Translations under genes and position numbers: made by a program
Shown here: positions 39,548 to 64,000 of the stretch, one piece after another
Layout of the letters: every line of letters begins with the position of its first letter
Position numbering within the stretch: the stretch's first letter is position 1
The notes under the pieces: model-generated
What the model was told of the DNA's origin: nothing
Databases searched by the model: none
The model's input: only the letters and a program-made list of their open reading frames with translations
Assembly (NCBI GenBank): GCA_963744145.1
Contig: CAVUSO010000001.1
Span: 3,584,001 to 3,648,000 of the forward strand
Length of the DNA stretch: 64,000 nucleotides
Reading direction: 5' to 3'
DNA from: an uncultured cyanobacterium
GTDB lineage: Bacteria; Cyanobacteriota; Cyanobacteriia; Cyanobacteriales; CAWUOF01

Positions 39548-41127
39548 AGTAGTCGGACAAAAGTAATAGGTACTGTATTAACTTTTGTAAAACGTATGGG
39601 TCAAGCAATAAGCTGGACAAAGTCATCGAAAAATTAGTCCAATCTGGAGAAGATTGGCCAAAGAAGTGGCTGGACAATGGGAGCAAAAAATTAGACTTAT
39701 TTTGGTAATTAAGGGGATAAGTGAGGTCGATTTTAGCTTCAAAAAAAACACCCTGATTGTGAAATAATTATAGAGCTAACTTAAAAGTTTGAAGAAAATG
39801 TCATCTCCTCCTTTGAGAATATTTTTAACATCTGCGGAAAATCAAACCTTATGGGAATTAAATAGAGCCGAGGGAGTTCCACTAAGAACAAGAGATCGGG
39901 CTGCGACATTGAGATTATCATCAATGGGATGGAAAGTGGAACAGATCGGCAAGTATCTGAACTGGTCAATTAAGACAGTGAGAGCCACAATACATCGTTG
40001 GGAAAAACAGGGATTAGCAGGATTATGGGATGCGCCTCGTCCGGGCAGGAAAAGAAAATGGAGTCAGGCAGATTTGGCAGAAATTGAAAAAAAACTAGAG
40101 ACAGAGGAACGAGCTTATAATAGTCGTCAGTTAGTGAAATATCTAGCCCAGGAAAGGCAAGTAAAACTGAGCCAAAGACAGTTGCGTCGAATCCTCAAAA
40201 AAAACTATCGGTGGAAAAGAACGAGAACATCTCTAAAAGGAAAGCAAGACCAGGAAAAAAGAGCAACTAAAAGAAATGATTTAGAGATGTTGGAATTCGC
40301 GGCAGCCGCGGGTGAAATATGTTTAAAATATTTGGATGAATCAGGATTTAGCCTGTGGGCTGAACCTGTATATACCTGGGGGAAAATCGGCCAACAGAAA
40401 CAGATCAAACAGCCTAAAAAGAAAGGGAAAAGATTAAATATATGTGGATTTTTGGCCGTGGGAGAAAGCTTTGAATATGGATTAAGTTTTAAGAGTTTTG
40501 ACAGTAAGAATTATATCAAATTAATGGATTGGCAAGCCGCGCAAGCGGAAACTAGATTGAAAGAAACGGGCAAAATAACTGTAATTGTCCAAGACCAATA
40601 TTCCGTTCACGTAAGTAAATTGACGAAGAGCAACTATGATCAATGGGAAAAACAAGGATTATATATATTCCTATTATCCAGTTACTCTCCCGAATTAAAT
40701 CTGATTGAAACGGAGTGGGAAAGAATCAAAGAAGATGAATTAGCTGGTCAAATGTTTGAGAATGAATATGAATTAACCATCGCGGTAAGAGCAGCAATCG
40801 AAGCTCGTCAAACTAGTAAGGGCTTAGAAGTAAAAAGATTTAGATTTGGTGGTCAGCCTAGCCAGGATGAACAAAAATCCTAATCGGGTTTATTCTAGTT
40901 CTAGTCAACCGGAAAAATTCCATTAATTGTTTAATGAGAGGCTGAGGCAAAACTGACCATATTTATAGTTAATAGAAAATCTGGAAATGCAGTTTTCTTA
41001 CTCTCTAGTGAAACCTATTCAGTTGGACGGAGGGAATACTTTTATATGCTTTTCTCTGGTAAATTTGTGGGTCAAATTTACTCTTAAATAAAGTTAACAT
41101 AGTTAACTTTATTTATGTCCGACTACT
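39548..41127 (+). mobile_element. IS630-family element (inner) with TA target duplication
   Basis: TA|AGTAGTCGGACA...TGTCCGACTACT|TA. Removal restores KLLLLYWIA of the outer transposase. Confidence 0.9.
39789..40883 (+). CDS. IS630 family transposase (single intact ORF)
   Basis: HTH region plus YLDESGF, VQDQYSVH and YSPELNLIE. Confidence 0.9.
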   Translation: MKKMSSPPLRIFLTSAENQTLWELNRAEGVPLRTRDRAATLRLSSMGWKVEQIGKYLNWSIKTVRATIHRWEKQGLAGLWDAPRPGRKRKWSQADLAEIEKKLETEERAYNSRQLVKYLAQERQVKLSQRQLRRILKKNYRWKRTRTSLKGKQDQEKRATKRNDLEMLEFAAAAGEICLKYLDESGFSLWAEPVYTWGKIGQQKQIKQPKKKGKRLNICGFLAVGESFEYGLSFKSFDSKNYIKLMDWQAAQAETRLKETGKITVIVQDQYSVHVSKLTKSNYDQWEKQGLYIFLLSSYSPELNLIETEWERIKEDELAGQMFENEYELTIAVRAAIEARQTSKGLEVKRFRFGGQPSQDEQKS

Positions 41128-41500
41128 TATTATACTGGATTGCTACCAAAAAAATCAGGACAAGACAAGAATTAGCTGCCATGTTAAAGCGCGATGAATC
41201 AACCATATATCGCTGGTTAAAAACTTACAAACAAGGTGGAATTACGGCATTACTAACAGTCAAAAAAGCCCCCGGAAAAGCTCCTCATGTCCCCCCCGAA
41301 GTCCGAGAAAAATTAATCAAGAAACTGCAAGAACCAACGGGGGAAACCAGTTATGGCAAATTGCGACTCTGGTTAGAAAAAGAGTGTGGAATTAAAGTCA
41401 GCTATAAAGTGGTACATGATCTAGTTCATTATAAATTAAAAGCTCACCTAAAAGTCCCCAGACCCCAAAGTAATAAAGTGGATGAAATTGCACAGGAGCA

Positions 41501-41528
41501 GTACGGGCGTATTGCGATACGCCCCTAC
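41501..41528. repeat. REP/SDR-like palindrome, copy 5
   Basis: GTACGGGCGTATTGCGATACGCCCCTAC immediately before the A7 run at the IS630 ORF junction. Confidence 0.85.
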
Positions 41529-42118
41529 AAAAAAACTGTGGTCGATCATAAAATTAATGATTAAATATTTCGGAACTGGTCAGCCAGTAAGGATCTGGTG
41601 TCAAGATGAGAGTAGATTTGGATTAATTACTATGCTGGGTAGAATGATTACCTTGAAGGGCATAAAGCCGCTAGGGAAAAAACAGTGGAAACGCGGAAAT
41701 TTTTAGGTCTATGGCGTGGTAGAACCGGCTACTGGTGAACAATATTTTCAAGATTTGCCTCATGTAAACTGTAACTATTTTCAAGAATTTTTAGATGGAT
41801 TTGCCCAAAAATATCCAGATAGTTTTAATTTAATTATTATGGATAATGGGAGTTTTCATAAAGCGCTGGATTTAACCTGGCCAGATCATGTCCTCCCGAT
41901 ATATTTGCCCGCCTATAGTCCCGAATTAAATCCCATTGAAAGATTATGGGAATATGTCAAGCGAGACCTCAAATGGGAAAACTATTCTACTGTAGATGAA
42001 CTCAAACAAAAAGTAGATCTAATACTCCAATCTCTCACCGTCGAAGAGGTTTTATCCATTTGTGGTTGGGACTATATCCTTGAGGCTATATTAAGTGCAG
42101 CTTCATAGTGAATTGGTA

Positions 42119-42344
42119 TTAGAAGCGAGTAATTTCGATCTCGCATCGTGATCGCTGAAAACAGACATCAAATTCTCGAAAGAAGTTTGTTTGCCCAAGG
42201 ATCAAGGGCACCTGAGATGCTTGTGCCCAAGCAAATGCTAGGCGAACTGGTTCCAAATTTCCAATTTGAACATACACAAATAAACCCCGTGCTTGAACAT
42301 TGGCAAGATTTCCAGCCAATGGCAAGGAAACAGTTTGTTCATCC
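42119..42344 (-). pseudogene. 3' half of a retropepsin-like small protein gene
   Basis: LAFAW...PLILGQTNFFREFDVCF. The N-terminus is replaced by the end of the TnpB element. Confidence 0.55.
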
Positions 42345-44167
42345 GCTTTTAAAAATCTATGCAAATCTACGCAAGGGCAGAAATGAATAGACAAGACTCC
42401 GCGGTTTAAGTTTCTGAAGCATCCTTTCTTAGTGCTTGTGCTTCCCCAGTATTGAGGTTGGCCAAGAAATCCCAGTTAGAGGCAGTATAATAATCGTGTC
42501 TGCGATTGATTACACTGGAATGCTTGAAAAGGTTATTTAGTTGATGCCACTGACTCCAAACGTGCTTAGTTGAGTTCACCTCAACAAAGGCGGTTAAGGA
42601 GTCAGGTAATTTTTCCGATAGCCTCATGGCACGTCTGCCAATGACTAACGCTGCGGCTTCATCACTGGCTAGAGCATACATCCGCAGGTATTTGACTAGG
42701 CCAATTATGCTTGTATAAGCAGGATTGACCAGGATTAGTTCAATGCCTCGGTTGGCCAAAATTGAACTTAGTTGTTTAAAAAACTCAGAATATGCCCATC
42801 CAGAAAGCATCCTGGCATATTTCCGACCACGTTCTCTCAATTGTTCTTTCTTAGTAGAAAAGTCTAGCTGTTCGCAAACGATGGGGCATTGATATCTGAT
42901 TGCTAAAATGGCCAGTTGTAGACAAGCTTCAACAATTTGAGCTTGTTGTTGGCCGTTGGGTAATCCAGTTTGTAACGAAATCTGACCATGTGCTTTGAGA
43001 TTACCTTCAGGGTCAAGGTATGCCCATCCAATTGAACCAGGATTTAGGTCAATGCCGATACATCCATAGTTTACAGAACGCGATATTTGCTTAACTGGTT
43101 TTGGAGTAAATTGAATTGCCGCACACCATTTACCAGCCTTGTAATAAAAGTGCCAAGTCTTAGCACCTATCGCTGGTAATCGATTAATATTTCTAGGGAA
43201 ATCTCCAATTTTGGACTCTACATATTTACCAAACTTTGACTCTAAACAAGCAGGGACTCTAAACTTTAAATTATTCCCATCCCATTGACATACTGAATTA
43301 CCAAAAGATTCACCCTTAGAGCCAACTACAAAGACTTGGTTTTTAGGAACTGATGCCCGAATAGGAATACATTTTAGTCTAGCAATCTTTTGTTGATACT
43401 GAAACAGCTTGCGTTTCTTATTGTGGATTTGAAACCGTAAGTGTTGCCAGTTAGTTTGACGATATTTTAATGAACTGGAGAGCGGAAATCTACACCCAGT
43501 CTTACTATTGACCCAATTCTTTTGACGATAAAACTTCCGGGCATCCTTTAGTTTCTTTTCAGCTTTTCTTAACCATTGCTCACAAGACTTCGCCTTACCC
43601 TCTAAGTTTTTGATATGTAAAATCCGACATTCCTTAGCACTATTAACCGCCCCATAAGCTGATGCAATCACACCAGCAGCATGGCGTTTATTGATTTGAT
43701 AAGTCTGTTGTAAATGTGTATTCCATTTGGACTTATTGAATGCTTGTTCTGATAATAAATGATTAACGGTTTCACATACAGCCTGACGGAATATTGGCGC
43801 ATAAGCACTCAAAAACATCTCTAGCTGAGTTTTGCCAATGGCGTTTAACTCTTCTAGTGGTGTTGGTAGTCCTTTGCAATATGTGAGCGAAGTCAATAGT
43901 TCGACATCCAATGAGTATTGAATCTTGATTCTATTATAACATCTAAGTCGTAAAAAAAATCAACTTCTGCAATAAATTTGTTGAAAATAACCACATTAGT
44001 ATCTAATTTTCAATTTAGGCAAAACAAGTTCTCGAACCAACATAATTAATCTGTTATTTAAGTTTGGCTAGTTTAGTAATGCTGATAGATTTTATTACCT
44101 CATTTATATAGAATTACCAAATAAATTCTATGTAAACCTAGGTATTTCGGCTACTGCTCACAACCCC
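42343..44167 (-). mobile_element. Non-autonomous IS607-like element carrying only tnpB
   Basis: Host frames appear to break at GG dinucleotides on both sides. An 18-bp motif (15/18 identical) lies at 42352-42369 and 44123-44140. No TIR, TSD or resolvase gene was found. Confidence 0.55.
42406..43911 (-). CDS. tnpB: TnpB-related RuvC protein, zinc-finger-less type
   Basis: GIDLN, VCEQLDF, VNPAYTS and SDEAAALVIGRR motifs, with no CxxC pair after AYTS. Confidence 0.85.
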   Translation of the reverse strand: MDVELLTSLTYCKGLPTPLEELNAIGKTQLEMFLSAYAPIFRQAVCETVNHLLSEQAFNKSKWNTHLQQTYQINKRHAAGVIASAYGAVNSAKECRILHIKNLEGKAKSCEQWLRKAEKKLKDARKFYRQKNWVNSKTGCRFPLSSSLKYRQTNWQHLRFQIHNKKRKLFQYQQKIARLKCIPIRASVPKNQVFVVGSKGESFGNSVCQWDGNNLKFRVPACLESKFGKYVESKIGDFPRNINRLPAIGAKTWHFYYKAGKWCAAIQFTPKPVKQISRSVNYGCIGIDLNPGSIGWAYLDPEGNLKAHGQISLQTGLPNGQQQAQIVEACLQLAILAIRYQCPIVCEQLDFSTKKEQLRERGRKYARMLSGWAYSEFFKQLSSILANRGIELILVNPAYTSIIGLVKYLRMYALASDEAAALVIGRRAMRLSEKLPDSLTAFVEVNSTKHVWSQWHQLNNLFKHSSVINRRHDYYTASNWDFLANLNTGEAQALRKDASET

Positions 44168-44599: not shown

Positions 44600-45615
44600 A
44601 TGACGCGATTTATTCATGACCAATTCGCTTGCGGATTATCTCGAAGAATTATTAAGAACCTTGGGCCGAGTCCAAGCACCCCGTAGCGTTACCACCGAAG
44701 TGAGGGAAATCGATGTTTGGTTTGAGCCAACATCAAATAGCACCGGCAATCCCCAACTGTTAGGATTATTAGGCAGATTAGCAGCAACACCCTGTATTTT
44801 AGAACCATTTCGTAATCCCGTCACACCCCAAGAAATTTGTGATTGTCTCTGCAAAGAATTAGAAATTAGACGCAGATTCTACCGAGAAACGATTCGTCAT
44901 GCTCAAGAACTAGCTGACTTACCCAGATTGTGGATACTTACACCCACCGCATCGCCAGCAATATTGTCAGGATTTCGTGCTATAGTAGAACCAGAATGGT
45001 TACCGGGAGTTCATTTAATGGCACCGGAACTCGCCGACGGCAATTATCGTGATTCACCAATTGCCCCGAACCCCAGAAACATTATGGTTGAGGATTCTGG
45101 GTAAAGGTAAAGTTCAACAACAGGCAATTGAGGAAATAGCAGCACTGCCAGATTCCCATCCTTTCCGCACTAATGCTTTAACCATGCTCAATCGGTTAAG
45201 AGCAGATTTACAAGTGTTCGCCAATCAAGATGTAGAAGATCAGGAGTTAGTTATGCGATTATCACCCCTGTTCGATCAACAATTAGAACAAGCCAAACAA
45301 ACAGCCGAACAGCAGGGTCTCCAGCAGGGTCTTCAGCAGGGTCTCCAGCAAGGCATCCAGCAAGGCATCCAGCAAGGTCTCCAGCAGGGCATCCAGCAAG
45401 GCATCCAGCAAGGCATCCAGCAAGACATCCAAGCGGGACAGCGTCGTCTGATCGAAAATCTCCTCATGTCACGTTTTGGTGACTTAGATGAGGAACTAAC
45501 CACGATCATCTCACCTTTGTTGGCTGTACCCCTCGATGAGTTGGCTCCTGCTATCCTCCAATTATCTCGTGCAGAATTATTATCTCGGTTTGGCTCCCCA
45601 AATAGAACAGAATAA
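44600..45615 (+). pseudogene. Rpn/PD-(D/E)XK-like (DUF4351-type) protein with two frameshifts
   Basis: MTRFIHDQFA..., EIDVWF, EPFRN and IHQLPRTPETLWLRILG. Apparent +1 shifts near 44633 and 45032. Confidence 0.8.
45310..45432 (+). repeat. 12-bp coding tandem repeat (QQG[L/I]) x about 10
   Basis: CAGCA(A/G)GG(T/C)(C/A)TC units. Confidence 0.9.
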
Positions 45616-49442: not shown

Positions 49443-51648
49443 TTAATGCGCTTGATAATCTGAATATAGTTTGATCGGAATTTCAATCTTAAACTCAGCT
49501 CCTGCACCAGGAGTTGAGAAAACTTGTAATTTTCCACCATGTTTTTCCACGACAATTGAATGAGCGATCGATAAACCTAATCCAGTCCCTTTACCAACTG
49601 CTTTAGTCGTGAAAAATGGATTAAATAATTGGTGTTGGATCGACTCACTAATCCCGTTCCCATTATCAGAAATAGTAATGGTTATTTTAGCATTATCTTC
49701 TATGGTAGTAGCAATTTTAATCAGCCCACAATGAATCTTGGATTCGGCAACTTTTAACTGTTCTTGTCGTTCTTCGATCGCATCAATTGCATTAACTAAC
49801 AAATTCATAAATACTTGATTAAGCTGTCCTGCGTAACAAGGAATATGAGGTAATTTACCATAAGCTTTGATCACTTCAATCTCTGGATAACCTGGACGTA
49901 CTCTTAAGCGATTTTGCAAAATCATTAAGGTACTATCAATCCCTTCATGGATATCAACATGTTTGAGTTCAGATTCATCAAGTCTAGAAAAAATTCTCAG
50001 AGATTTAACAATTTCTCGAATCCGAACAGCTCCTGTTTTGATCGAATCAACCATTTTCGGAAAATCTTTTTTTATGTATTCTAAATCAATATCTTCTATA
50101 AATTCTTGAATTTCTTCGCTTGATTCTGGACAGGTTTTTCCATATAACTCAATTAGCCGAAATAAATTATTAGCCGATTCTTCAACATGGGTAATATTCC
50201 CATGTATAAAACTAGTTGGATTATTAATTTCGTGAGCAATTCCTGCTACTAATTGACCTAATGCAGCCATTTTTTCCGATTGAATTAAATGAGTTTGAGT
50301 AATTTTCAGATCATAAAGAGTATTTTTTAGCTCCTGAGTCCGCTGGTCTACTGTAACTTCTAAATTGCGAGAATATTCGGCTAATTTTTCATTAGCTTCG
50401 GCTAATTGTTCATGACTGATTTTTAAATGCGATCGATTCAAATAATTTGCCATTAAAATTGCTGAACAACTCAAAGCGAGTAAAGGTGAAAATACCGGAA
50501 TAATCCAACCAGATAGAAAAGCCAGATAACTCCCACCAATTAAATACACACTTCCTGTTAATATGGTAAATATTGTGCCTCCTAAAAATATTTGCTTTTT
50601 CAAAATTTTGATTTGCAATAATTTCCAAGACCCAATTGCTCCAAGACAAGACCAAACTAAAATCCAGAGAGAATTTATGGTTCGATCCCAAGCTCTCAGC
50701 ATGGGACGTTCCTTCTAAAGCAGCACTTAAAATTTGACTGGCTAAATTAGCATGAATTACAATTCCTGGTGTTAGTTTAGAATTGGAGAATGCGACACTA
50801 CTATAAGGTGTTTGGAAGGTGTCTTTAAGACTGTCTGCTGTTGAACCAATTAAAACTAGGCGATCGCGCATTAAATTGGGAGGTATATGATTGTCTAATA
50901 CATCTTTCATCGATATACTCACAAACCGATCCAATTCTCCCCGAAAATTCATTAAAATCTGATATCCCCCAGTATCAGCACCAACATATCCACCTTCTTT
51001 TCCGGTTAATGGTATAAATACTGCTTGACCTAAGCCATAGATTTTTTTTTGCGGATCTATAAGTTTTAAAGATATATTTTCCTGTTCCAAATATATTAAC
51101 GCCAGTTTAGCGGCGAGACTCTCTCGAAATTTACCACTTTTATTACCAATTAATATTAAACCTCGCCGCACTTTACCATCAGCATCTAAGATCAAATCTG
51201 AAGCGGCTACTTGATCGATTTTATCCAAACTTGGTGGAGGATTGATGGGTGGTACTCCTACCTTTTCAATCCCAATAGATTTTGGTGCAGACTCAAATTC
51301 CTGCACTAATTCTTGATGACCTGGTGCAATTGGTAAATCTCGATAAATATCTAAACCAATCACTCTCGGTTGTTGTTTTTTGATGTTTCGCAGTAAATTA
51401 GCCATTACCTGATCAGACATGGGCCAATGCCCGATGTTCGTGATATCTGATTCTTCAATCTTCACAATCACAATACGCTGATCAATTGGCTCAACTGGAC
51501 GTAGGTGAAAAAATTGATCGATGATCGTCCATTCGAGGAGTTGAAAAATTCCAGCTATGCTCCCAGCCATAACTAATCCTGCTACGCTGGGAGCGATAGT
51601 TAATACTCCTAGACCCTCACCTATTCTCTGTCTGAGCTTTTGCCACAT
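49443..51648 (-). CDS. CHASE2-domain sensor histidine kinase, +1 frameshift near 50710
   Basis: CHASE2 (WPMSD, IGLDIYRD, DADGKVRR, PGIVIHA), TM helices, AHEINNP and FFTTK..GKGTGLGL. Deleting one A restores LEGRPMLRAW. Confidence 0.88.
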
Positions 51649-51675: not shown

Positions 51676-52779
51676 TTACAAAGGTTCAAGCACAGACTGA
51701 TTGGCGATCGCATCTAATCCCACCTGGGCTAACAAGTCTCTCCATTCACTTTTTAGGGTGGTATTATTAGGCTGGGCTTGTTTAGCTGCATTTAAAACGG
51801 CGATCGTATCGTACCAAATTCCTGATTTGGCATATAATGTGGCCACTTCTACCGCATTTAATTTAGACAGGTTATTGCTAATTGTTGGTGCTTCTACTCG
51901 TTTTACCCATCCACTCACAAAATGATTATCTGGACGGATGATCGCTCCAGGTACGCTCGCTGTAAAAAACCAAGCATAGTTTTTACCTAGGGCTAATTCG
52001 GGAGCATCATCAGGAAGAGTAATTTTAACTATTCCTCCTTGACCAGAAACTTGGAGATTGGTTTGATAAAATTGATTTTTGTTTTCATCTTGCATGGTAA
52101 ACAAGATGTTTGTGGCAGAAGTTGGAGGTAGATAAACAAAAAATGTCGGGTGAGCTGCGATGGTACGTCCAATTTTAGTTTGGGGAATTAAAGCCACCAG
52201 ATTAGAAATTTTTTCACTACGAGTGGCTGCCCCAGTGGTATTTTGAGGTGTAGATTCTCCCGGAGCTTGGAAACTCACATTACCACGAGTAGCTCCTCCT
52301 GTAGTATTTTGAGGTGTGGATTCTCCCGGAGCTTGGAAATTCACATCACCACGAGTAGCTCCTCCTGTAGTATTTTGAGGTGTGGATTCTCCCGGAGCTT
52401 GGAAACTCACATTACCGCGAGTAGCTCCTCCTGTAGTATTTTGAGGTGTGGATTCTCCCGGAGCTTGGAAACTCACATTACCGCGAGTAGCTCCTCCTGT
52501 AGTATTTTGAGGTGTAGAATCTCCCGGAGCTTGGAAGTTGATATTTCCTCTTATTCCTCCACCCGTAGAATTATTAGGTGTACTATCTCCTGGTGCTTGA
52601 AATTGAATATCTCCCCGACTACCTCCTCCGGTAGTATCATGGGGAGCCGAATCTCCTGGTGATTGGAATTGGATCGCGATCGCTGGTTTTAAACTGCTCA
52701 AGTTAGTGCCCACTACCATGATTCCAGCTAGAGAGAAAAAGAGAGCTGTTTTAGTAATAGAGTTGTGAGAAGTAGTCAT
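51676..52779 (-). CDS. Exported DUF928 protein with seven N-terminal 22-aa repeats
   Basis: Signal peptide ending AIA, followed by the repeats and then GRTIAAHPTFFVYLP...GIWYD...W..LL..VGL. Confidence 0.88.
   Translation of the reverse strand: MTTSHNSITKTALFFSLAGIMVVGTNLSSLKPAIAIQFQSPGDSAPHDTTGGGSRGDIQFQAPGDSTPNNSTGGGIRGNINFQAPGDSTPQNTTGGATRGNVSFQAPGESTPQNTTGGATRGNVSFQAPGESTPQNTTGGATRGDVNFQAPGESTPQNTTGGATRGNVSFQAPGESTPQNTTGAATRSEKISNLVALIPQTKIGRTIAAHPTFFVYLPPTSATNILFTMQDENKNQFYQTNLQVSGQGGIVKITLPDDAPELALGKNYAWFFTASVPGAIIRPDNHFVSGWVKRVEAPTISNNLSKLNAVEVATLYAKSGIWYDTIAVLNAAKQAQPNNTTLKSEWRDLLAQVGLDAIANQSVLEPL
52213..52674 (-). repeat. 66-bp coding tandem repeat x7
   Basis: Consensus VSFQAPGESTPQNTTGGATRGN. 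Copies 3-7 are near-identical in DNA. Confidence 0.95.
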
Positions 52780-52809: not shown

Positions 52810-55435
52810 TTACAGCCAATTTCCGACTAAGACAAATGGTGCCCAGAAATAGGGATGGTTGTATTCAGGATTTTTTAACAAACCGATTTGAGCTTGACGT
52901 AAAGCTTCGGCTTTGCTCATTTTTAAGTCTGTCCGACTTAAGTTATGATAAAATTTTATCATCAAATCTGCCGTAAATCTGTCACTGACTGACCACAAGC
53001 TCGCTAAGGTACTGAGTGCTCCTGAGCGTAATGCTAATCCTGCTAGACCCAATACAGCCCTTTGATCTCCCGATGCAGTTTGACAAGCACTTAAAACTAA
53101 TAACTGAATGGGATTTAGGTTTACTTGTCCTTGGGGTTGAAGTAATTGATCGAAATCTTTGACTGCGATTTTTTGATCCCAAGTAAGTAAAAAGGTTTCG
53201 GCTGGATTAGAGCTGAATTGGCCAGTGGGTAGCCAGATGAACTACTGGAAAGACGTTAGTCTCTACTTGGGTTTTAAAAGCAGCACGAGTAAAATTCTCA
53301 TTTAACAGTACCTTAGCATCTATTGTAGCAGCAATTTGTTTGACTTCTTCGGCAACTCCTGGTAAATCAGAAAAACCTTGACGAGCTTCTGTAAGTCCCA
53401 CCGCTAAGACTTTGAGTTGATTTCGTTCCAGTCCTTGGGGAAATAGTTGTAACCCTGGGCTCAGAGCGATACTATATTTTTCGATGAGATACTGTTGACC
53501 ATCATAGAGGGTAGCCATGGGTAAAGAACGGAAGAACCCATCTAGGACAAATACTAGGGTTTTGACCCCATGACTAGCTAGGTCTGTCTCAGCGGGTCGA
53601 ATCAGCCAGTCATAAACTTGCTCGGAAAAGTGCTGATTCTTATCATAAGAATAACCTATATAAAAAGAAGAGTATAAATTTTGCAGTACTGCTTCGATTT
53701 GTTCTTTAGCTAGTGGGGTGGTGTAGTGACGGAGCGGTTGATTAGGTTGAGATAAGATTACTTCTAAGCGATCGTCCAGAATAATTGGATAAATTACAGC
53801 CGATTGGGGATCAATACTATCAATTTTTTGGGGATGGGTTGTTAAGCAAGCATCCCGGAAAAAGTTATCTAATTCTGCCAATTGGAGAGCTTCGATGACT
53901 TGACGAGCTTGAGTAATATTAGCTTGGCTGGCATTAGGCTGTAATAATAAGCTGACCAGTTGTCGATAAACGGGTTCTACGCTTTCTTTAAAGTTAAATT
54001 GCACTTCGGAATTAATTGCAACTAAGTCATTGCGAAGTGATTGTAAGGTATTAACGGCTTCAGTATAAGCGGTAATGGATTGATTTACATCTCCTTTTTG
54101 CTTGAAAATTCGACCTAGTTGCCAAGCAGCACGGGCGACTGTTATCGGGTCATTAGTTGTTTGGGCAATTTGGAGAGAATGTTGAGTGAGATTTTGGGCA
54201 TCTGCCCATTGTTGATTTTGTTCATAAATTTTTCCTAGTTCATTGAGGGCTGATGCTTCGGCTCTTTGATCTCCGATTTGTCTAGCTTCTTCGATCGCTG
54301 TTGCTAATATTTTAGCAAGATCAGGGATTTGGCGATCGCCCGTTCCGACCGATAGTTTCATTAAACTTTCAGCTAAGTTAACTTTGCCGTAGATCGAATA
54401 ATGGGAAGCTGGTAATCCAGCTAAATTAGATTCTATTTGGGGGAGCAGAGCGATCGCGGGTTTCCAGTTTTTGCTTTCTGTCAATAAACTTAGTTCATTG
54501 AGTTGAGATTGGAGACGAACCAGATCATTTTTGGCTACTTTTGTGGCTTGTTGATAGTAGGCTAAAGCCACATCATTTTGCCCTAAATCTCTGGCTACAT
54601 TACCGATGCTAAATAAGGTAGAACTTGTGTCTTTACTAGGGTCAATCCGCTTGCTAATTTCCCAACTTTGTTCTAATATTTTCTTGGATTTAACTAAATC
54701 ACCTGCGGTTTGCAAAGCTACACCTAAACTGCGTAAGCCATCTGCTTTCAAAAGAGTATCTGGTTGAGATTGCAGTTGCCCGACCAACTCGTCTAAAAGT
54801 GATCTTGACCGTCGATACTGTCCTAAAGATTGCCAAGCTTGAGCTTGATTAATCTGACTACCCAATTTGCCAGTTTGATTATCAGCTCGATCATAGGTAG
54901 CTGTGGCAATTTTCCAAGTTTCTAATGCTGGTTCAGTTTGTCCAGTTGCTAGTTGAATATTGCCTTGAATATTGAATGCTTGCGCTAAGATATCAACACC
55001 TCGGCGCTCTAAATTACTTTGATTTTGTAATAAATTTATACTCGTTTCGATGGTCTTTTTAGCCAAATCCCATTGACCTAAATCTTGAGTTACAGATGCT
55101 AGGTAATTTAAGGCTTGAGCTTGGTTAAGAATAGCACCTTTTTCGGCATATTTCTGGGCTGCTTGTTGCCAGATTTTAGCAGCATCGGCAAAACGTCCTG
55201 CTGTATATAGTTCTTTTCCCTGCTGCAATAATTGATGTGGATCTTCTAAAGTTTGAGTCACCGATAAGGATACTTGATTTTCTCTTTCCCCATGGGAATG
55301 TTGGGCGATCGCTGGTAACCCGACTGTAACTATAACTAAAGTTAGCAAAAAGCAACCTATAAACAGGAAAGATGAAAAAGAACTAATTTTTTTCTTACCT
55401 ATAGATCTTATGCGTTGCAGATAAATGTTGACCAT
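52810..55435 (-). CDS. Exported TPR + CHAT-domain (caspase/HetF-like) protease, +1 frameshift at about 53224
   Basis: Hydrophobic leader ending AIA, TPR helices, ELDNFFRDAC, HLATH(G), LSACQTA.GD and HPYFWAPFVLVGNWL. Confidence 0.88.
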
Positions 55436-55700
55436 AATTTTATATACCGTTACATTTAAAATGTTTATGGTTATCAGTAGGGCTGATATTTTCTGTTCAA
55501 TGAGTATTTTTACCATCGTTAATCAGAAAATTTGTAACTGAAGATACTTTTTCCTCCGCTGCATATAGTTAATTTCATTATTCCCATAATTGAGCTAGAT
55601 CTATCTTCTATTTGCCAATTTAGATATTGAGCGATCGCTGACAACCTGGCTGTAGCAATAAAATCCAGTGAGCAAAAAGGGATAACTATTGGTCATGAAT

Positions 55701-58202
55701 TTATATACCGTTACATTTAAAAGGTTTAAGCCAAGGTGAATCACCAGTTAAATTTGTTGGATCAGCGACTAATTTGATTTTGCCGATCGCATCTTTTACC
55801 CAACCTGTTGCTTCCACCAATTGATGGGACTGCTGTGGCACCAAAAAACGCGAATTTTGGCTAAATCTTTGGGGACGGGGGTTTTCCGGTGCGGAAAAAT
55901 CTTGCCAATCTTGCCAAATTGTTTGACCTCTAATTGTTGTGGTGGGATCTTCTGGTAAACCACCAAGTCCAGTCACAGTTAAGGAGTTACCTTGATTAAC
56001 AGCACATCCTACCACTACTTGGTGAGTGGGATCTTGGACTGTATCTGGTAATATTACTAATCCAGAACTAGGGTTTACGGCGGGATTGTTAATATTGATC
56101 GTACCAGAAACTCCAAACTGGGAACTAGCGGTAATATTACTATTGGGAGAAAGAAATAGTCCTTGGGTAGTGATATTAATATTACCACCTCGACCTTGAA
56201 CCGCATTAGCAATAATGTTACTATTTTCGAGTAGCTCTACCGTATTTGTATCAATATAGAGGTTACCCCCATTACCATTACCACCAGCAGTAGCAGTAAT
56301 ACTACTGTCTCCTTGTAGTTGGATATTCTGTCCTTGCAACATAATATTACCACCTTTACCATTAGTAGTAGTAGCAGTAATCTCACCAGCATTGTCTAGA
56401 AAAATAGAAGCAGCATTAATATTAAGTGTTCCTGCACTACCAAGTCCCTGATTGGTGACATTGACTAAACCACCATTAAGGACGCTCAATTGAGGAGTGT
56501 TAATTGTCACAGTTCCCGATTTCCCGCTTGGTACGGTCGGTAATCCCAGGAATTTTTGGGCTTCTAAATCAGCAATCTGAGCAGATGCACTAATCTGGGA
56601 TGGATTCAGATCTGCGACTGCTTGACCATTCACTTCGACAGATTTGAGAGCATTGATAGTAATATCACCAGCATTACCACTTGCATAAGTTGCGCTAGAA
56701 ACTTGTCCTCCCTGATCTATGGTTAACTTTGAGGTATTAATTATTAAATTACCACTATTTCCTGGACCGAAATTTATCACTCCCAAAAAGCTAAAAGTCC
56801 TAGTATATGTGTCTGCTCCTGTACCGATAATGTCTAGAGTAGTTGCAGAAACAGTAAATTTACCACCGCTTCCAGAACTAAATGTACTATCCGTTATCCT
56901 TGCTCCCTGTAAAATACTTAGCTGATTTGTGAGTATGGTTAAATCTCCCGCATTCCCTGAGCCGTAGGTAGCACTACCGATATTACTAACAGAAGATTTA
57001 CTTACTTCTACAGATTGAGCAGCATTTATATTAATATCTCCACTTTTCCCCGTATTAAAACTTGTAGTATCTATAATTGCTCCAGATTGGACGAATAAGC
57101 GTTTAGTTACAATATTTATATCTCCTCCGTTTCCTGCTGCTACCGATTGAGTGAGCAAGCTACTAGGAACGTCTTGAGTTGAGGATATTCCACTTAATTG
57201 GACGGACTCAGATGCGTTAATACTGATATTTCCAGTTGGTTTAATTCCTTGATTTTCAATTAAAATAACTGAACCATCATTAAGAGTTACATTTCTACCT
57301 TGGACAGAAATAAACCCGCCTCCTTGATTATTACTAGCATCAAGTAAAGCTTGTTGAGATAAATTTATATCAGCAAATATTTGCCCATCTGGATAGTCAA
57401 AGCTCCAACCAGTTGCCGCAGAATTAAAATTAACATTACCAGCACTAACGCTACCTAATTCAATTCTTCCTCCTGGTGCCATTAATACCGCTCCTTGGAG
57501 ATTAATATTATTCCCAATTAAGGCTAAAGATTGACCTGGTGCTACTTGTAAACCTGGAGAGTTATTTCCCCTTAAAAATCGGGGAGAAGCTGGGTTAGGA
57601 ATAGTTAAATTATGTCCCATCCCAGCAACATTAATAGCTCCAGAATTTTGACTAAATTGTAATCCTATTGGTGTACTAATAGTTAGTAATGGGGAGTTTT
57701 GAGGATTAGTCGCACTAAATAGAGTGCCATCAGCAAAACTAATTCTATTCGCTGTACTTCCTAAAAAAGACCCACCAATATTTAAGGCTGCATGAGTACC
57801 AAAATTAATTCCATAAGGATTGAGGAAAAATAAGTTAGCTGTCCCATTAGCTTTGAGAGTCCCATCAAGATTAGAACTAGTATTCCCTGTAACGCGAGTG
57901 ATAATATTTTGGATATCTAAAGCATTATTAAAAAATGCTGTATTACCAGTCGGGATCGAAAAATTTGTGAAACTATGAAATAAGTTGCCACCTGCTCTAC
58001 TACCACCTAGGATCATTAAATCCTTACCATTGGGAACAACAATAGAATTATTAGGAAGAGTGCGATCGGGGATAATTTGTGCTGTGACTCGACTAGAAGG
58101 TACAGCTAGCGCGATGAAGATAGTCCAGAATAATTGGGAAGAGACTAGGTGACAACGACATAAAAAAATACGCTTTTTAATGGAACTAATAAGCATTATC
58201 AA
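55701..58202 (-). CDS. Filamentous-haemagglutinin-N-domain (TpsA-like) exoprotein, copy 1
   Basis: NLFHSF..F, NP.GI.FG, beta-helix repeats, GLGGLP and EATGW. Confidence 0.9.
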   Translation of the reverse strand: MIMLISSIKKRIFLCRCHLVSSQLFWTIFIALAVPSSRVTAQIIPDRTLPNNSIVVPNGKDLMILGGSRAGGNLFHSFTNFSIPTGNTAFFNNALDIQNIITRVTGNTSSNLDGTLKANGTANLFFLNPYGINFGTHAALNIGGSFLGSTANRISFADGTLFSATNPQNSPLLTISTPIGLQFSQNSGAINVAGMGHNLTIPNPASPRFLRGNNSPGLQVAPGQSLALIGNNINLQGAVLMAPGGRIELGSVSAGNVNFNSAATGWSFDYPDGQIFADINLSQQALLDASNNQGGGFISVQGRNVTLNDGSVILIENQGIKPTGNISINASESVQLSGISSTQDVPSSLLTQSVAAGNGGDINIVTKRLFVQSGAIIDTTSFNTGKSGDININAAQSVEVSKSSVSNIGSATYGSGNAGDLTILTNQLSILQGARITDSTFSSGSGGKFTVSATTLDIIGTGADTYTRTFSFLGVINFGPGNSGNLIINTSKLTIDQGGQVSSATYASGNAGDITINALKSVEVNGQAVADLNPSQISASAQIADLEAQKFLGLPTVPSGKSGTVTINTPQLSVLNGGLVNVTNQGLGSAGTLNINAASIFLDNAGEITATTTNGKGGNIMLQGQNIQLQGDSSITATAGGNGNGGNLYIDTNTVELLENSNIIANAVQGRGGNINITTQGLFLSPNSNITASSQFGVSGTININNPAVNPSSGLVILPDTVQDPTHQVVVGCAVNQGNSLTVTGLGGLPEDPTTTIRGQTIWQDWQDFSAPENPRPQRFSQNSRFLVPQQSHQLVEATGWVKDAIGKIKLVADPTNLTGDSPWLKPFKCNGI

Positions 58203-58278
58203 ACCTATTTATTGACCAATACGGTTCAGGTAAATATAAAATACAATTAGCAAAAAAAGATAAATTTTTGTGATAAAT

Positions 58279-60783
58279 TTATATACCTTTACATTTAAAA
58301 GGTTTAAACCAAGGTGAATCACCAGTTAAATTTGTTGGATCAGCAACTAATTTGATTTGACCGATCGCATCTCTTATCCAAGCTGTTGCTTCCACCAGTT
58401 GATCTGACTGCTTTGAAATCTCCAAAGACAAATTTTGACTAAATTTTTGATCATGAGAGTTTTCTGGTGCTGAAAAATCTTGCCAATCTCGCCAAATTGT
58501 TTGACCTCTAATCGTCGTAGTTGGATCTTCTGGTAAACCACCAAGTCCAGTTATCGTTAAGGAGTTACCTTGATTAGCTGCACATCTCACAGCTACTTGC
58601 TGGGTGGGATCTTGGACTCCATCTGGTAATACTACTAATCCAGAACTAGAGTTTACGGCTGGATTGTTAATATTGATTGTGCCAGAAACTCCAAACTGGG
58701 AACTAGCAGTAATATTGCTATCGGGAGAAATAAATAGTCCTTGGGTGATGATATTAATATTACCACCTCTTCCTTTAAAGGCATTAGCAATAATATCACT
58801 ACTTTCTAAGGCAACTAAGGTATCAGTTTTGATATTAATATTACCACCATTTCCTGTATCACCTGCGGTAGTAGTAATTTTACCACCCAAACGCAATTGC
58901 AAATTTTGGTTTTGCACAATAATATTACCACCTGCACCAGATGCAGTTGTTGCTGTGATCAGACCACCATTAGTGACAGAAATATTCTTCGCATTTATTC
59001 TCAGTGTTCCCGCGTTTCCAGAACCGACATTCCTCACACTAAGCAGTCCCCCATTTTGGATGGTTAATTGATCTGTGTTCACAATCAAGTCTTTCGATGC
59101 TCCACTAGGTAAGGGGAGCAGGTTAAATTCTTGCTGGTATATAGTAAGGGGTGCTTCAGCCGAAGATGTAATCGAAGTCAAGAATGCTCCAGGAATATTG
59201 TCGCTAATTTTGATTGACTCAGTAGCATTAATAGTAACAGTTCCGGCATTACCACTCCCCAAAGTGGTAGCAGTAATATTACCTCCATCTTGGATAATTA
59301 ACTGGGCGGTATTAATGCTCAAGTTACCTGCATTACCACTATTAAAGGTACTACTAGAGATCACACTAGGTTGAAGTAAGGTCGGTTCAATTCCACTGAC
59401 TTGGATCTGGGTAGCATTCACTTTCACATCTCCTGCGTCACCTTGTCCTAATGTTAAAGATGTCAGCGCTCCTCCACCCAAAACTTGCAACTGAGGGGTG
59501 GAGATCGTGACATTTCCCCCATGACCAGGACCAAAGGTGGGACTTCCCAGAAAACTAAAAAATACTGGATTGAGTGGAGAAACTCCGCTTACTACTACGG
59601 ATTCAGAAGCGTTGACATTCACATTACCTCCGATCGCCGGACCGAATGTGTTAATATTGATTGACGCACCATCCTGAACTAACAACTTTTTGGTATTGAT
59701 ATTTAAGTCACCTATAAATCCTTCTGTAGTTGAACTACCGATATTGCTACGAATGCGTAAATCAGGTGCAGTTCCGATTAGATCGAATTCCTGGGAAGCA
59801 TTGATATTTATCTGACCTGATGGTTTTAACCCTGTATTCAGGATGATAATTTGGGAACCATCGGTCACTGTAATCAACCCCCCTTGAACTGTAATCGAAC
59901 CACCACCATCACTTTTAGCGTATGCTGCGGCTAGTTGTGATAGCGTAATATTTCCGAAGGATGACACTTTTGAATAGTCAAAGCTCCAACCATTGGGAGC
60001 AGCATTGATGGTGACATTGGGTAGTACACCTGAAGTTCCATCCACACTACCTAATTCTATATGTCCTGATGGTGCAGCAATAGTGCCACCAGTTAAGGAT
60101 ATATTGCCACCAATCAATGCTAAGGTATTTCCTGGTGCTACCTGTAATCCGGTGATTTGATCTCCTCCGGTTATTTCTCCCAGATTCGGATTAGGATGGG
60201 TAAATGTGTGACCTAAACCATTCACATTAATGTCACCAGGATGTTGTCCAAATTGTAATCCCATGGGAACGCTAATGGTTAATAGGGAATTAGGTTGGGG
60301 ATTGCTAGCACTAAAGGATGAGCGATCGCTAAATAGTATGGTCTCTGCGGTTGTCGCTAAAAACGAACCCCCTATATTTAATCTAGCATTTGGACCAAAA
60401 ATAATTCCCTTGGGATTGAGCAGAAACAGATTAGCTGTACCATTGGTTTGTAAGAATCCATCAATATTAGAACTGGAACTACCTGTAACACGAGTAATAA
60501 TATTTTGGATATCTAAAGCATTATTAAAAAATGCTGTATCACCAGTCGGGATCGAAAAATTTGCGAAACTATGAAATAAGTTGCCACCTGCTCTACTACC
60601 ACCTGTGATCATTAAATCCTTACCATTGGGAATAACAATGGAATTATTAGGAAGAGTGCGATCGGGGATAATTTGTGCTGTGACTCGACTGGAAAGTACA
60701 GCTAGCGCGATGAAGATAGCCCAGAATAATTGACACTGACATAAAAAAATGTGCTTGTTAATGGAACTAATAAGCATGATCAA
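58279..60783 (-). CDS. TpsA-like exoprotein, copy 2
   Basis: Same architecture as copy 1 with a divergent middle. Confidence 0.9.
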   Translation of the reverse strand: MIMLISSINKHIFLCQCQLFWAIFIALAVLSSRVTAQIIPDRTLPNNSIVIPNGKDLMITGGSRAGGNLFHSFANFSIPTGDTAFFNNALDIQNIITRVTGSSSSNIDGFLQTNGTANLFLLNPKGIIFGPNARLNIGGSFLATTAETILFSDRSSFSASNPQPNSLLTISVPMGLQFGQHPGDINVNGLGHTFTHPNPNLGEITGGDQITGLQVAPGNTLALIGGNISLTGGTIAAPSGHIELGSVDGTSGVLPNVTINAAPNGWSFDYSKVSSFGNITLSQLAAAYAKSDGGGSITVQGGLITVTDGSQIIILNTGLKPSGQININASQEFDLIGTAPDLRIRSNIGSSTTEGFIGDLNINTKKLLVQDGASININTFGPAIGGNVNVNASESVVVSGVSPLNPVFFSFLGSPTFGPGHGGNVTISTPQLQVLGGGALTSLTLGQGDAGDVKVNATQIQVSGIEPTLLQPSVISSSTFNSGNAGNLSINTAQLIIQDGGNITATTLGSGNAGTVTINATESIKISDNIPGAFLTSITSSAEAPLTIYQQEFNLLPLPSGASKDLIVNTDQLTIQNGGLLSVRNVGSGNAGTLRINAKNISVTNGGLITATTASGAGGNIIVQNQNLQLRLGGKITTTAGDTGNGGNINIKTDTLVALESSDIIANAFKGRGGNINIITQGLFISPDSNITASSQFGVSGTININNPAVNSSSGLVVLPDGVQDPTQQVAVRCAANQGNSLTITGLGGLPEDPTTTIRGQTIWRDWQDFSAPENSHDQKFSQNLSLEISKQSDQLVEATAWIRDAIGQIKLVADPTNLTGDSPWFKPFKCKGI

Positions 60784-60855
60784 ACCTATTTATTGACCAA
60801 ACGATTGAGCATTTCTCCGTAGTGATGAGGTAAAGTTTGGATTTTTGTGATAATT

Positions 60856-63354
60856 TTATATACCTTTACATTGTAAGGGTTTAAGCCAAGCTGAATCCCC
60901 GGTTAAATTTGCTGTATAAGTAGTTAATTGGATTTTTCCCCCTGGAGCGATTACCCAACCTGTTGCTTCCACCAATTGATGGGGCTGTTGTGGCACCCAA
61001 CGCGAATTTTGACTAAATTTTTGGGGACGGGCGTTTTCTGATGCGGAAAAATCTTGCCAATCTCGCCAAATTGTTTGACCTCTGATTGTTGCAGTTGCAT
61101 CTTCTGGTAAACCACCAAGTCCAGTTACGGTTAAGGAGTTACCTTGATTAGCAGCACATCCTACCACGACTTGGTGAGTGGGATCTTGGACTGTATCTGG
61201 TAATATTACTAATCCAGAAGTAGGGTTTACTGTGGGATTGTTAATATCGATCGTGCCAGAAACTCCAAACTGGGAACTAGCAGTAATATCACTATCGGGA
61301 GAACGAAATAGTCCTTGGGTGATGATATTAATATTACCACCTTGACCTTTAACTGCATTAGCAATAAGGTTACTATTTTCGAGCAGAGCTAGGGTATTTG
61401 TATCAATATGGAGGTTGCCACCATTACCATTACCCCCAGCAGTAGCAGTAATAGTGCTGTTATGCTTTAGTTGGATATTCTGTCCTTGCAAGATAATATT
61501 ACCACCTTCACCATTAGCAGTAGTGGCAGTAATACCTCCCGCATTGTTCAGAAAAATTGAACCAGCATTGATATTCAGTGTACCAGCATTACCTAGTCCT
61601 TGATTGGTGACATTGATTAAACCACCATTGAGGACGTTCAATTTAGGAGTGTTGATGGTGATATTTCCTGTTTTGCCACTTGGTACGGGAGGTAATCCTA
61701 GTAATTGTTGTATCGCTTGAGTAGGCATCTGGGCAGATGCTGTGATCTGAGATGGATTTAGAGTTTCTACTGCTAGACCACTTACTTCCACGGATTTGAG
61801 AGCATTGATAGTCACATTACCAGCATTACCATTAGCATAAGTTGCACTAGCAATTTCTCCGCCATCAGCGATGTTTAAGGTTGAGGTATTAATTGTTAAA
61901 CTACCACCATTTCCTATGCTATAGGCTGATCCATCGAAACTACTAGCAATTTTAGTAGATCGGCCTGTTCCCGTACCAATAATATTTATGCTATCTGCCG
62001 AAATAGTGAATTTGCCGCCTGCCCCAGAACTTAATGTACCATTAAATATAAATGCTCCATTTAAAATATTCAATTGACTGGTTGATAGAGTTAAATTTCC
62101 CGCTGGTGCCAGACCGTAAGTAGTTGAAATAATGGCCGAAGGATAAGTATTTAATACCACCGATTTAGAAGCATTTATATTCACATCTCCACTTTGGCCA
62201 GTAGCAAAATCTATAGTAGCTATTTGAGCGCCATTTTCGATCAATAAGCTTTTAGTTGAAATCTGGATATTTCCACTATTTCCAGTTGTTAATGCTGGGG
62301 TATATATGGTAGTTGGAAGTATTCCATCTGCGGAAAATCCACTTATTTGGACAGATTCTGAGCCATTAATCGCAATATTTCCTGTTGGTTTAATTCCATC
62401 ATTTTCAATCAATATAACTGAGCCGTTATTGATCATTATGTTTCTACCTTGCACTGCAATCAGTCCACCTCCTTGACTACTACTAGCATCAAGTAATGAC
62501 TTTTGCGATAAATTTATATCAGTCAAATTTTGGGCATCTTGATAGTTAAAAATCCATCCGGTTGCTGTGGAATTAAAACTCACATTCCCCGCCCCAACAC
62601 TACCTAGCTCAATTCGTCCTCCTAGTGCTACTAATACACCTCCTTGCAAGTTAATTGCACCTCCAATTAAAGCTAATGATTGACCCTGTGATACTTGCAA
62701 GCTGCTCGGATTATTCCCTCTGATCAATTGTTGAACTGGTGATGATGAATCAATAGTTATAGCAGAACCTAAACCAGTCACATTAATTGCTCCCACATTT
62801 TGACCAATCTGTAAACCAACTGGCACACTCATTGTTAGTAATGGTGCGGTTTGAGGATTACTGGCACTAAATCCAGTTCCATCTGCAAAACTAATCCTAT
62901 TTGCGGTACTTCCTAAAAATGACCCACCAATATTTAATGCTGCATGAGTACCAAAATTAATCCCATTCGGATTGAGGAAAAATAAGTTAGCTGTCCCATT
63001 AGCTTTGAGGGTACCATCAATATTAGAACTGGAATTCCCCGTAACACGAGTAATAATATTTTGGATATCTAAAGCATTATTAAAAAATGCTGTACTCCCA
63101 GTTGGGACAGAAAAACTCGCTAAACTATGAAATAAGTTACCACCTACTCTACTACCACCAGTGATTGTTAAATCCTGACCATTGGGGACAACAATAGAAT
63201 TATGAGGGAGGGTTTGATCGGGGCTAATTTGTGCTGTGACTCGACTAGACAGTAAAGGTATAGCAAGGAGGATAACCCAGGATAATTGGGAACAGACCAG
63301 GTGACACTGACCTAAAAAATTACGCTTGTTAATGGAACTGATAAGCATTATCAA
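60856..63354 (-). CDS. TpsA-like exoprotein, copy 3
   Basis: Same architecture as copy 1. Confidence 0.9.
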   Translation of the reverse strand: MIMLISSINKRNFLGQCHLVCSQLSWVILLAIPLLSSRVTAQISPDQTLPHNSIVVPNGQDLTITGGSRVGGNLFHSLASFSVPTGSTAFFNNALDIQNIITRVTGNSSSNIDGTLKANGTANLFFLNPNGINFGTHAALNIGGSFLGSTANRISFADGTGFSASNPQTAPLLTMSVPVGLQIGQNVGAINVTGLGSAITIDSSSPVQQLIRGNNPSSLQVSQGQSLALIGGAINLQGGVLVALGGRIELGSVGAGNVSFNSTATGWIFNYQDAQNLTDINLSQKSLLDASSSQGGGLIAVQGRNIMINNGSVILIENDGIKPTGNIAINGSESVQISGFSADGILPTTIYTPALTTGNSGNIQISTKSLLIENGAQIATIDFATGQSGDVNINASKSVVLNTYPSAIISTTYGLAPAGNLTLSTSQLNILNGAFIFNGTLSSGAGGKFTISADSINIIGTGTGRSTKIASSFDGSAYSIGNGGSLTINTSTLNIADGGEIASATYANGNAGNVTINALKSVEVSGLAVETLNPSQITASAQMPTQAIQQLLGLPPVPSGKTGNITINTPKLNVLNGGLINVTNQGLGNAGTLNINAGSIFLNNAGGITATTANGEGGNIILQGQNIQLKHNSTITATAGGNGNGGNLHIDTNTLALLENSNLIANAVKGQGGNINIITQGLFRSPDSDITASSQFGVSGTIDINNPTVNPTSGLVILPDTVQDPTHQVVVGCAANQGNSLTVTGLGGLPEDATATIRGQTIWRDWQDFSASENARPQKFSQNSRWVPQQPHQLVEATGWVIAPGGKIQLTTYTANLTGDSAWLKPLQCKGI

Positions 63355-63553
63355 ATCTCTTTATTGACCGAATATTTGGTAAAATTTGGTATTTGGCTCA
63401 CCCGGATCTACACTGATAATTAGTATTTATACTATCTAGCTCATTGATGCTTGATTTTCTATTTCCTGCATTTAGATATTTGGCGATCGCCTAGCAACCA
63501 GGCTGTAACTAGAAAATACAATTAGCAAAAAAAGATAAATTTATGACAAAAAT

Positions 63554-64000
63554 TTATATACCTTTACATTGTAAGGATTTAAGCCAAGCTGAATCCCCGG
63601 TTAAATTTGCTGTATAAGTAGTTAATTGGATTTTTCCCCCTGGAGCGATTACCCAACCTGTTGCTTCCACTAATTGATGGGGCTGTTGCGGCACCAAAAA
63701 ACGCGAATTTTGACTAAATTTTTGGGGACGGGCGTTTTCTGATGCGGAAAAATCTTGCCAATCTCGCCAAATTGTCTGACCTCGGATCATTGCAGTTGCA
63801 TCTTCTGGTAAACCACCAAGTCCAGTCACGGTTAAGGAGTTACCTTGATTAGCAGCACATCCTACCACTATTTGATGGGTGGGATCTTGAACTGTATCGG
63901 GTAATACAATTAATCCAGAACTAGGGTTTACTTCTGGACTATTGATCGTGATCGTGCCAGAAACTCCAAACTGGGAACTGGCGGTAATATTACTATCAGG
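63554..64000 (-). CDS. TpsA-like exoprotein, copy 4 (3' end only; continues past the window edge)
   Basis: C-terminus nearly identical to that of copy 3. Confidence 0.85.
   Translation of the reverse strand, partial: PDSNITASSQFGVSGTITINSPEVNPSSGLIVLPDTVQDPTHQIVVGCAANQGNSLTVTGLGGLPEDATAMIRGQTIWRDWQDFSASENARPQKFSQNSRFLVPQQPHQLVEATGWVIAPGGKIQLTTYTANLTGDSAWLKSLQCKGI

Follow-up and report, generated by a model that had tools for sequence, protein, structure and literature searches.

Why would an apparently exported cyanobacterial protein carry one short motif seven times between its leader and its folded domain, and what could such an array do between the genes of a protease and of a membrane sensor? 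These questions are raised by a locus of an uncultured cyanobacterium, found in a stretch of 64,000 nucleotides (contig CAVUSO010000001.1, positions 3,584,001 to 3,648,000) that is hereafter called the window. An initial annotation of this locus had read the array as a multi-copy peptide precursor cleaved by the adjacent protease. We analysed the array itself, its distribution among DUF928 proteins, its gene neighbourhoods and structural models of the protein, and we weighed the functions that could be proposed for it.

The seven-unit array of the window protein

The minus-strand ORF 52779-51676 encodes a protein of 367 residues, composed of a leader, the array and a DUF928 domain (Table 1). 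The array consists of seven Arg-ending units at an exact spacing of 22 residues (52219-52674), with the terminal Arg at residues 55, 77, 99, 121, 143, 165 and 187. This is the seven-fold 22-residue cassette that the initial annotation had placed after the signal site, and the unit endings listed there (GGGSR-G, GGGIR-G, four times GGATR-G and GAATR-S) match the sequence. The unit consensus given with them needs a small correction for copy 1, which reads FQSPGDSAP and spans only 20 residues after A-I-A. TRF returned a 66-bp period, with 6.1 copies at 87 % over 52240-52641 and, as a second match, 4.8 copies at 94 % over 52219-52536. When residues 1-190 were shuffled, at least two motifs were obtained in 0 of 10,000 shuffles, as against the seven observed.

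Residues 1-35 are predicted to be an export signal peptide, since hydropathy peaks at 2.1 over residues 13-25, A-I-A occupies residues 33-35 and homologues have similar leaders. The protein belongs to the DUF928 family (PF06051), with a Pfam match over residues 183-362 (E 2e-54; 184.6 bits against a curated cut-off of 26) whose start is overlapped by unit 7. With seven motifs and no Cys at all, it departs from the single-motif DUF928 type (i.e. one motif and a Cys within 8 residues). It combines an export signal, as judged by hydropathy, with tandem conserved units sharing one junction type, both expected of a precursor, and it looks like a candidate multi-copy peptide precursor whose units would yield peptides of about 2176-2204 Da.

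By their similarity, units 3-6 are recent duplicates, and units 1, 2 and 7 are older. Over the 21 pairs among the seven copies, mean pS was 0.42 and mean pN 0.17, and copies 4 and 7 differ by six synonymous changes and a single replacement. As pS exceeds pN across unit pairs, the protein sequence of the units is maintained by purifying selection. Promoter and terminator scans gave chance level only, and a unit profile run across the organism's own genome returned no convincing further carrier.

Table 1. Features of the array-bearing gene and its neighbours (window coordinates)
Feature	Coordinates	Strand	Basis
Predicted Sec signal peptide, residues 1-35, ending A-I-A	52675..52779	-	Hydropathy peak, AxA, homologue leaders
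Unit 1, the 20 residues that follow A-I-A, ending GGGSR	52615..52674	-	Unit parsing
Unit 2, 22 aa, ending GGGIR	52549..52614	-	Unit parsing
Units 3-6, 4 x 22 aa, ending GGATR, near-identical	52285..52548	-	TRF and unit parsing
Unit 7, ending GAATR, then Ser	52219..52284	-	Unit parsing, AlphaFold
DUF928 core, Ig-like beta-sandwich and TPR-like helices, MtxA-C-like fold, no cysteine	51676..52218	-	Pfam, AlphaFold, fold comparison
TPR-CHAT, first (N-terminal) frame: TPRs behind a hydrophobic leader, then CHAT as far as the catalytic His	53207..55516	-	ORF, Pfam
TPR-CHAT, second (C-terminal) frame, holding the catalytic Cys (S-A-C)	52810..53223	-	+1 frameshift near 53224
CHASE2 sensor, first (N-terminal) frame, with the ectodomain (positions 2-229 of the 257 in the profile)	50410..51648	-	ORF, Pfam
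CHASE2 sensor, transmembrane helices and histidine kinase (HisKA, HATPase_c)	49443..50708	-	Extra base near 50709
Three tandem genes with two-partner-secretion (TPS) domains, upstream (55701-58202, 58279-60783, 60856-63354)	55701..63354	-	ORFs, Pfam

Amplification of the motif among DUF928 proteins

DUF928 was present in 51 of the 151 genomes sampled from the phylum. The organism's own genome holds 16 matches, i.e. two multi-copy proteins (7 and 9 units) and 14 with one motif or none, four of the 16 scoring zero motifs. The second multi-copy paralogue (G000:C1:7338274-7339551; L024:8272-9543, minus strand) carries nine units of another dialect, ending GGGSR; its CHAT-DUF928-CHASE2 cassette is intact, and a transposase gene lies directly after its upstream TPS gene.

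Counting motif copies across homologues, as the initial annotation had proposed, showed the motif to be conserved. At least two units, mostly 4-5, were found in 113 of the best 120 of 236 homologues, in many genera, a set biased towards repeats by the multi-copy query. Copy number ranged over 6, 7, 9, 9 and 10 units inside one 90 %-identity cluster and reached 13 units at locus L104; since it varies so freely, the units would act additively and not as parts of one fixed fold.

With a single-copy paralogue as query, exactly one motif was found in 117 of 119 homologues, which supports the proposal that the array amplifies the single motif of the family. Phe lies 17 residues before the Arg in 108 of them, and a Cys follows the Arg by at most 8 residues in all single-copy forms (117/117). 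In a dereplicated set, this post-Arg Cys was present in 0/79 multi-copy cores vs 38/40 others, so that amplification goes with the loss of the Cys. Single-motif proteins (e.g. paralogue G000:C1:42946) share with the multi-copy form the same core, an F-x(16)-R motif and similar CHAT, CHASE2 and TPS neighbours. They carry one copy followed by the Cys, which is probably paired with a second core Cys, whereas the multi-copy form has 2-13 copies without that Cys. Multi-copy DUF928 proteins are a widespread subfamily rather than a strain-specific or local novelty.

A single origin of the amplification is not favoured by a quick tree, which needs three changes, two of them forced by starred branches, and amplification may have arisen two or three times. 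Two multi-copy outliers sit on long branches of this tree. P0133 (419 aa, from a metagenome) is a distant DUF928 protein with eight units and a Trp near the place of the Phe; it lies on a long branch off the main multi-copy clades and is possibly an independent amplification. An array-only search of 1.84 billion representatives gave 48 matches, mostly DUF928 proteins or fragments, the unrelated low-complexity repeats among them being set aside by eye.

Neutral slippage could be invoked, with only the core-adjacent unit mattering and the other copies being tolerated by-products of 66-bp duplication. The fast turnover of copy number inside one cluster, the near-identity of the middle copies and the frameshifts found in both the CHAT and CHASE2 partners in the assembly are compatible with it. 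We nevertheless regard it as highly improbable in view of the recurrence of at least two copies in many genera, of a pN well below pS, distal copies included, and of the tracking of Cys loss by amplification.

Unit grammar was described in 157 core-bearing proteins out of 186, near-identical ones included. With a script that favoured the Arg-giving register, Arg was near-invariant, ending 695 of 731 unit-like segments (Lys, none), and the following residue was Gly at 502 of 554 internal junctions. Spacing was 21-24 residues in 556 of 580 cases and exactly 22 in 440. In a profile of 528 distinct units, selected by a pattern that set Phe and Arg, Pro at -14, Pro at -9 and Gly at -3 each exceeded 90 %; a second, internal Arg occurs in 260 of these units, never after a Gly-rich run. 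The window units have Arg at P1 followed by a small residue, as do substrates of HetF/separase-type CHATs. The loose resemblance to PatS that had also been suggested was not borne out, RG[S/T]GR being found in 0/305 proteins over the first 200 residues searched.

Gene neighbourhoods and structural models

In the window, the DUF928 gene lies between the gene of a presumably exported caspase-like TPR-CHAT protein and that of a CHASE2 membrane sensor with a histidine kinase. Both genes, as well as the three TPS-domain genes, are on its minus strand, and a fourth TPS match lies just outside the window. Within 55701-63868, the three tandem TPS genes share a conserved C-terminal segment, an extra copy of which (63554-63868) is part of a further gene leaving the window. 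Elsewhere in the window, we observed a 12-bp tandem repeat (45310-45431; QQG[L/I] units) within ORF 45049-45615, overlapped by ORF 44616-45104, which may be its frameshifted first half, and several ORFs at 39789-43911 that were judged transposase-like by the look of their translations.

Both partner genes are split. A +1 frameshift near 53224 leaves the catalytic His and Cys of the CHAT both present, in two different frames, and another +1 frameshift near 50709 interrupts the CHASE2 sensor gene. Judged against the proteins of relatives, 1/47 non-module vs 1/5 module genes are split, and 14 of 18 candidate frameshifts genome-wide are +1. The low rate in non-module genes and the excess of +1 shifts make us lean to long-read assembly error as a possible cause, although two frameshifts within 2.5 kb are more than that genome-wide rate predicts. 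One public soil metagenome carries the stretch with no indel listed, but the contigs listed span neither frameshift site; no RNA data set carrying the stretch was listed. With CHAT and CHASE2 both split, the window copy would work only if the frameshifts are sequencing errors or if paralogues act in trans.

Neighbourhoods were compared at 40 multi-copy loci, i.e. 39 from relatives picked by similarity and the own paralogue, which are not independent; locus L101, whose array is cut by a contig end, was left out of the counts, and L128-L131 are outside the 40. A TPR-CHAT gene was found within 3.5 kb in 36 loci, with the His/Cys dyad intact in 36/36 and a hydrophobic leader in 34/36. The CHAT protease noticed beside the array by the initial annotation is thus a regular neighbour. 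A CHASE2 sensor was found within 1.2 kb in 33 loci, its output varying between loci (kinase, hybrid kinase, SpoIIE or cyclase). CHAT is absent nearby in four of the 40 loci and CHASE2 in seven, two of the latter at or near contig ends. The own genome totals 18 CHASE2, 85 CHAT and 56 TPS matches, and many of its ORFs above 1,000 residues carry both CHAT and TPS. Co-variation of the units with CHASE2 rather than with CHAT (partial Mantel r 0.46 vs 0.10; 25 loci) was discarded, as it was reversed (0.26 vs 0.36) once the divergent locus L110 was removed.

Three genes encode the unit without a DUF928 core, two in L100 and one in L128. The L100 pair (L100:10831-11298 and L100:10380-10841, minus strand; G327:C214) encodes small exported proteins with 1-2 Arg units and an acidic tail, and is placed between a TPR-CHAT gene and a five-unit DUF928 gene. 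The second protein of the pair has no Pfam match and is 42 % identical to P0145, from a 7-member cluster, and would therefore represent a conserved family. In L128, a core-less unit protein of the P0141 type (L128:9252-9806, plus strand; G481:C66) is encoded directly after a prolyl oligopeptidase gene and 233 bases before a CHASE2-SpoIIE gene; neither DUF928 nor CHAT was found in the 19 kb examined.

The AlphaFold model of the window protein's core has a pLDDT of about 90. It best matches MtxA (4z29; Z 9.9-10.2, rmsd 3.8-4.0, 148-149 residues aligned), the next unrelated entry reaching 7.4-8.0, and shows the same two-part domain, Ig-like and TPR-like. An atlas comparison gave leads all below 0.9, including a weak one to the MtxA Pfams (score 0.78), and a Foldseek search gave no match at E 0.001. 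When the core was modelled with the last unit, residues 1-10 had a pLDDT of 78 and residues 14-23 were below 50. Read from these pLDDT values, the F-x-x-P half of the last unit probably rests on the MtxA-like core, and its GGxR end would be flexible or free.

The full array was modelled as a low-confidence solenoid (pLDDT 55-62; 37-47 in part of units 1-3). The units could form a structural stalk: stacked as a beta-solenoid, they would hold the core away from the membrane or assemble into a filament. The repeating short strands of the full-length model, a faint resemblance to CAP/TBCC solenoids (Z 6-8) and the frequent spacing of exactly 22 residues agree with such a stalk. However, the pLDDT is low, Z scores under 8 are frequent by chance, a whole subfamily works with one copy, and the units are Pro/Gly-rich and 21-24 residues long, and we hold the stalk to be very unlikely. 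As for the protease, an Asp located 34 residues after the catalytic Cys is invariant and is at most a candidate for the acidic S1 residue that separase has in Asp2151/Asp2070; a search of solved structures for the S1 residue returned only TPR matches and one weak CHAT match (8tl0, E 1.2).

Possible roles of the units and related systems

HetF of Anabaena PCC 7120 cuts PatU3 at R117-S118 with the Arg required, and it tolerated substitutions at the three residues preceding this Arg (PMC9457339). Separase cleaves after Arg in unfolded sequence (PMC10317155) and craspases after Met or Leu (PMC11506125); the available part of a SAVED-CHAT preprint gives no cut site. HetF is thus a cyanobacterial CHAT whose single cleavage site, an Arg with a small residue behind it, resembles the one proposed here. 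It acts at the division site, where a single cut destroys a regulator (PMC9457339), whereas the window protease and its candidate substrate have export leaders and the site is repeated.

By analogy with HetF and separase, both of which cleave after Arg, we favour a reading in which every unit-ending Arg is a CHAT cut site and the peptides so released work on CHASE2, while giving it somewhat less than an even chance. A presumably exported precursor would present seven copies of the DUF928 recognition motif. In keeping with the model, the unit next to the core would be held there by its F-x-x-P half, its TxGGxR end remaining an exposed loop. The co-encoded and co-exported TPR-CHAT would then cut after each Arg, yielding one 20-mer and six 22-mers, all Arg-ended, and these, as gene order suggests, would act on the neighbouring CHASE2 ectodomain and switch its kinase. 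More copies would give more signal per precursor; the trigger, more speculatively, would probably come from TPS surface proteins.

This reading is favoured because the Arg is strict, with no Lys and with Gly next, because the units are under purifying selection, and because a TPR-CHAT with its dyad and a CHASE2 sensor accompany most arrays. The core-less units beside CHAT or CHASE2 genes and the flexibility of GGxR in the model point the same way. In single-copy forms, the conserved Cys comes after the Arg, so that the N-terminal motif would be released by cleavage all the same. Several points count against it. CHAT specificity varies between proteases, and no Arg-binding S1 was mapped on the window CHAT. 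A plain Arg-cutter would shred the units, given their frequent internal Arg, and the HetF evidence does not explain the GGG, as changes at the three preceding residues were tolerated. Some loci have no CHAT (four, as well as L128) or no CHASE2 (seven) nearby, the full array was modelled as a solenoid, if at low confidence, and both window partners are frameshifted. Finally, this conservation is also compatible with a tether in which the Arg serves for binding.

Such a tether would be an uncut multivalent ligand, whose attached units bind CHASE2, DUF928 cores, the TPS protein or the groove of the TPRs; avidity, reach or the clustering of receptors would depend on how many units there are. Conservation over 18 residues (Phe -17, Pro -14, Pro -9) goes far beyond the needs of a protease site, the Arg is kept at loci without an adjacent CHAT (L074, L109, L113, L118), the F-x-x-P half is confidently placed in the model, and half of the units have an internal Arg, all of which suits a ligand. 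Yet the strict Arg without Lys, the small next residue, the flexible Gly run and a dyad-bearing protease in 36/40 loci resemble a cut site, and we consider the uncut ligand rather unlikely.

The array could also be cut without the peptides being the signal. Removal of the leader would unmask or inactivate the core, itself the CHASE2 partner, and extra copies would serve as decoys or as a timer, or would restrain the protease as substrate mimics. This is consistent with the probable docking of a unit on its own core in the model, with the own paralogues that scored zero motifs and with MtxA, whose similar core is encoded beside a CHASE2 cyclase gene and for which the available text describes no such units (PMC4439547). 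It is weakened by the core-less proteins beside CHAT and CHASE2, which keep the unit without a core, though decoys would look alike, and by the purifying selection acting on distal copies along their whole length; we judge it unlikely. Taking together the freed-peptide and the unmasking, timer or brake readings, we consider cutting of the array by the CHAT fairly probable.

Known systems share parts of this arrangement. MtxA of Magnetospirillum gryphiswaldense (4Z29) resembles the window protein by its signal peptide and its C-terminal Ig-like and TPR-like fold, and a CHASE2 adenylate cyclase gene comes right after its own; it is 7 % identical to the window protein, its N-terminal part is predicted to be beta-rich, with no Arg units described in the available part of the report, and mtxA deletion gave no phenotype (PMC4439547). 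DdvA of Myxococcus xanthus is a periplasmic TPR-CHAT proposed to start trans-envelope signalling by cutting a flexible linker; unlike the window cassette, it is a single membrane protein that acts as anti-sigma factor, with no separate precursor and no CHASE2 described in the available text (PMC11506125). NsrA of S. meliloti, with CyaD1/CyaD2/CyaK, illustrates CHASE2 cyclase sensors that answer a protein-type signal through an envelope partner; there, the signal is a plant protein and the partner an outer-membrane barrel, and the accessible part names no protease or precursor (PMC13001267). Akin to our proposal, a peptidase trims exported PatX down to a short Arg/Gly peptide, but the active PatS/PatX motif, HRGTGR, binds HetR (PMC12756182), and no RG[S/T]GR occurs in the first 200 residues of the 305 proteins searched here. 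A single paper naming DUF928 was found, and it does no more than record the domain beside CHASE2 and WD40 genes (PMC5587647). In the literature searched, whose coverage excluded most subscription papers, we found no described function of DUF928, no work treating CHASE2, the CHAT domain and cyanobacteria together, and no published description of a DUF928-CHAT-CHASE2 cassette with an array.

Yeast alpha-factor and prohormone precursors have a signal peptide, tandem near-identical units and a basic residue per junction; they are eukaryotic and are processed by subtilisin-type convertases at dibasic sites. They are not known to carry a folded C-terminal domain like that of DUF928 proteins. A bacterial prohormone-like system may be envisaged, although we think it somewhat unlikely in this full form: an exported caspase-fold protease would release Arg-ended 22-mers as the CHASE2 ligand, with copy number as gain control, paralogous cassettes as peptide dialects and core-less mini-precursors or decoys as add-ons.

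The units form a genuine array, maintained by selection and widespread, in which the DUF928 motif has been amplified within a conserved envelope cassette. CHASE2 is a common sensor domain for which no ligand is named in the literature searched; the ligand has been stated to be unknown (PMC5192318), and only an indirect protein signal has been reported (PMC13001267). That one motif has been amplified naturally singles out the functional element and defines peptides for synthesis. Such peptides would allow cheap tests of the substrate of exported CHAT proteases and of the signal perceived by CHASE2.
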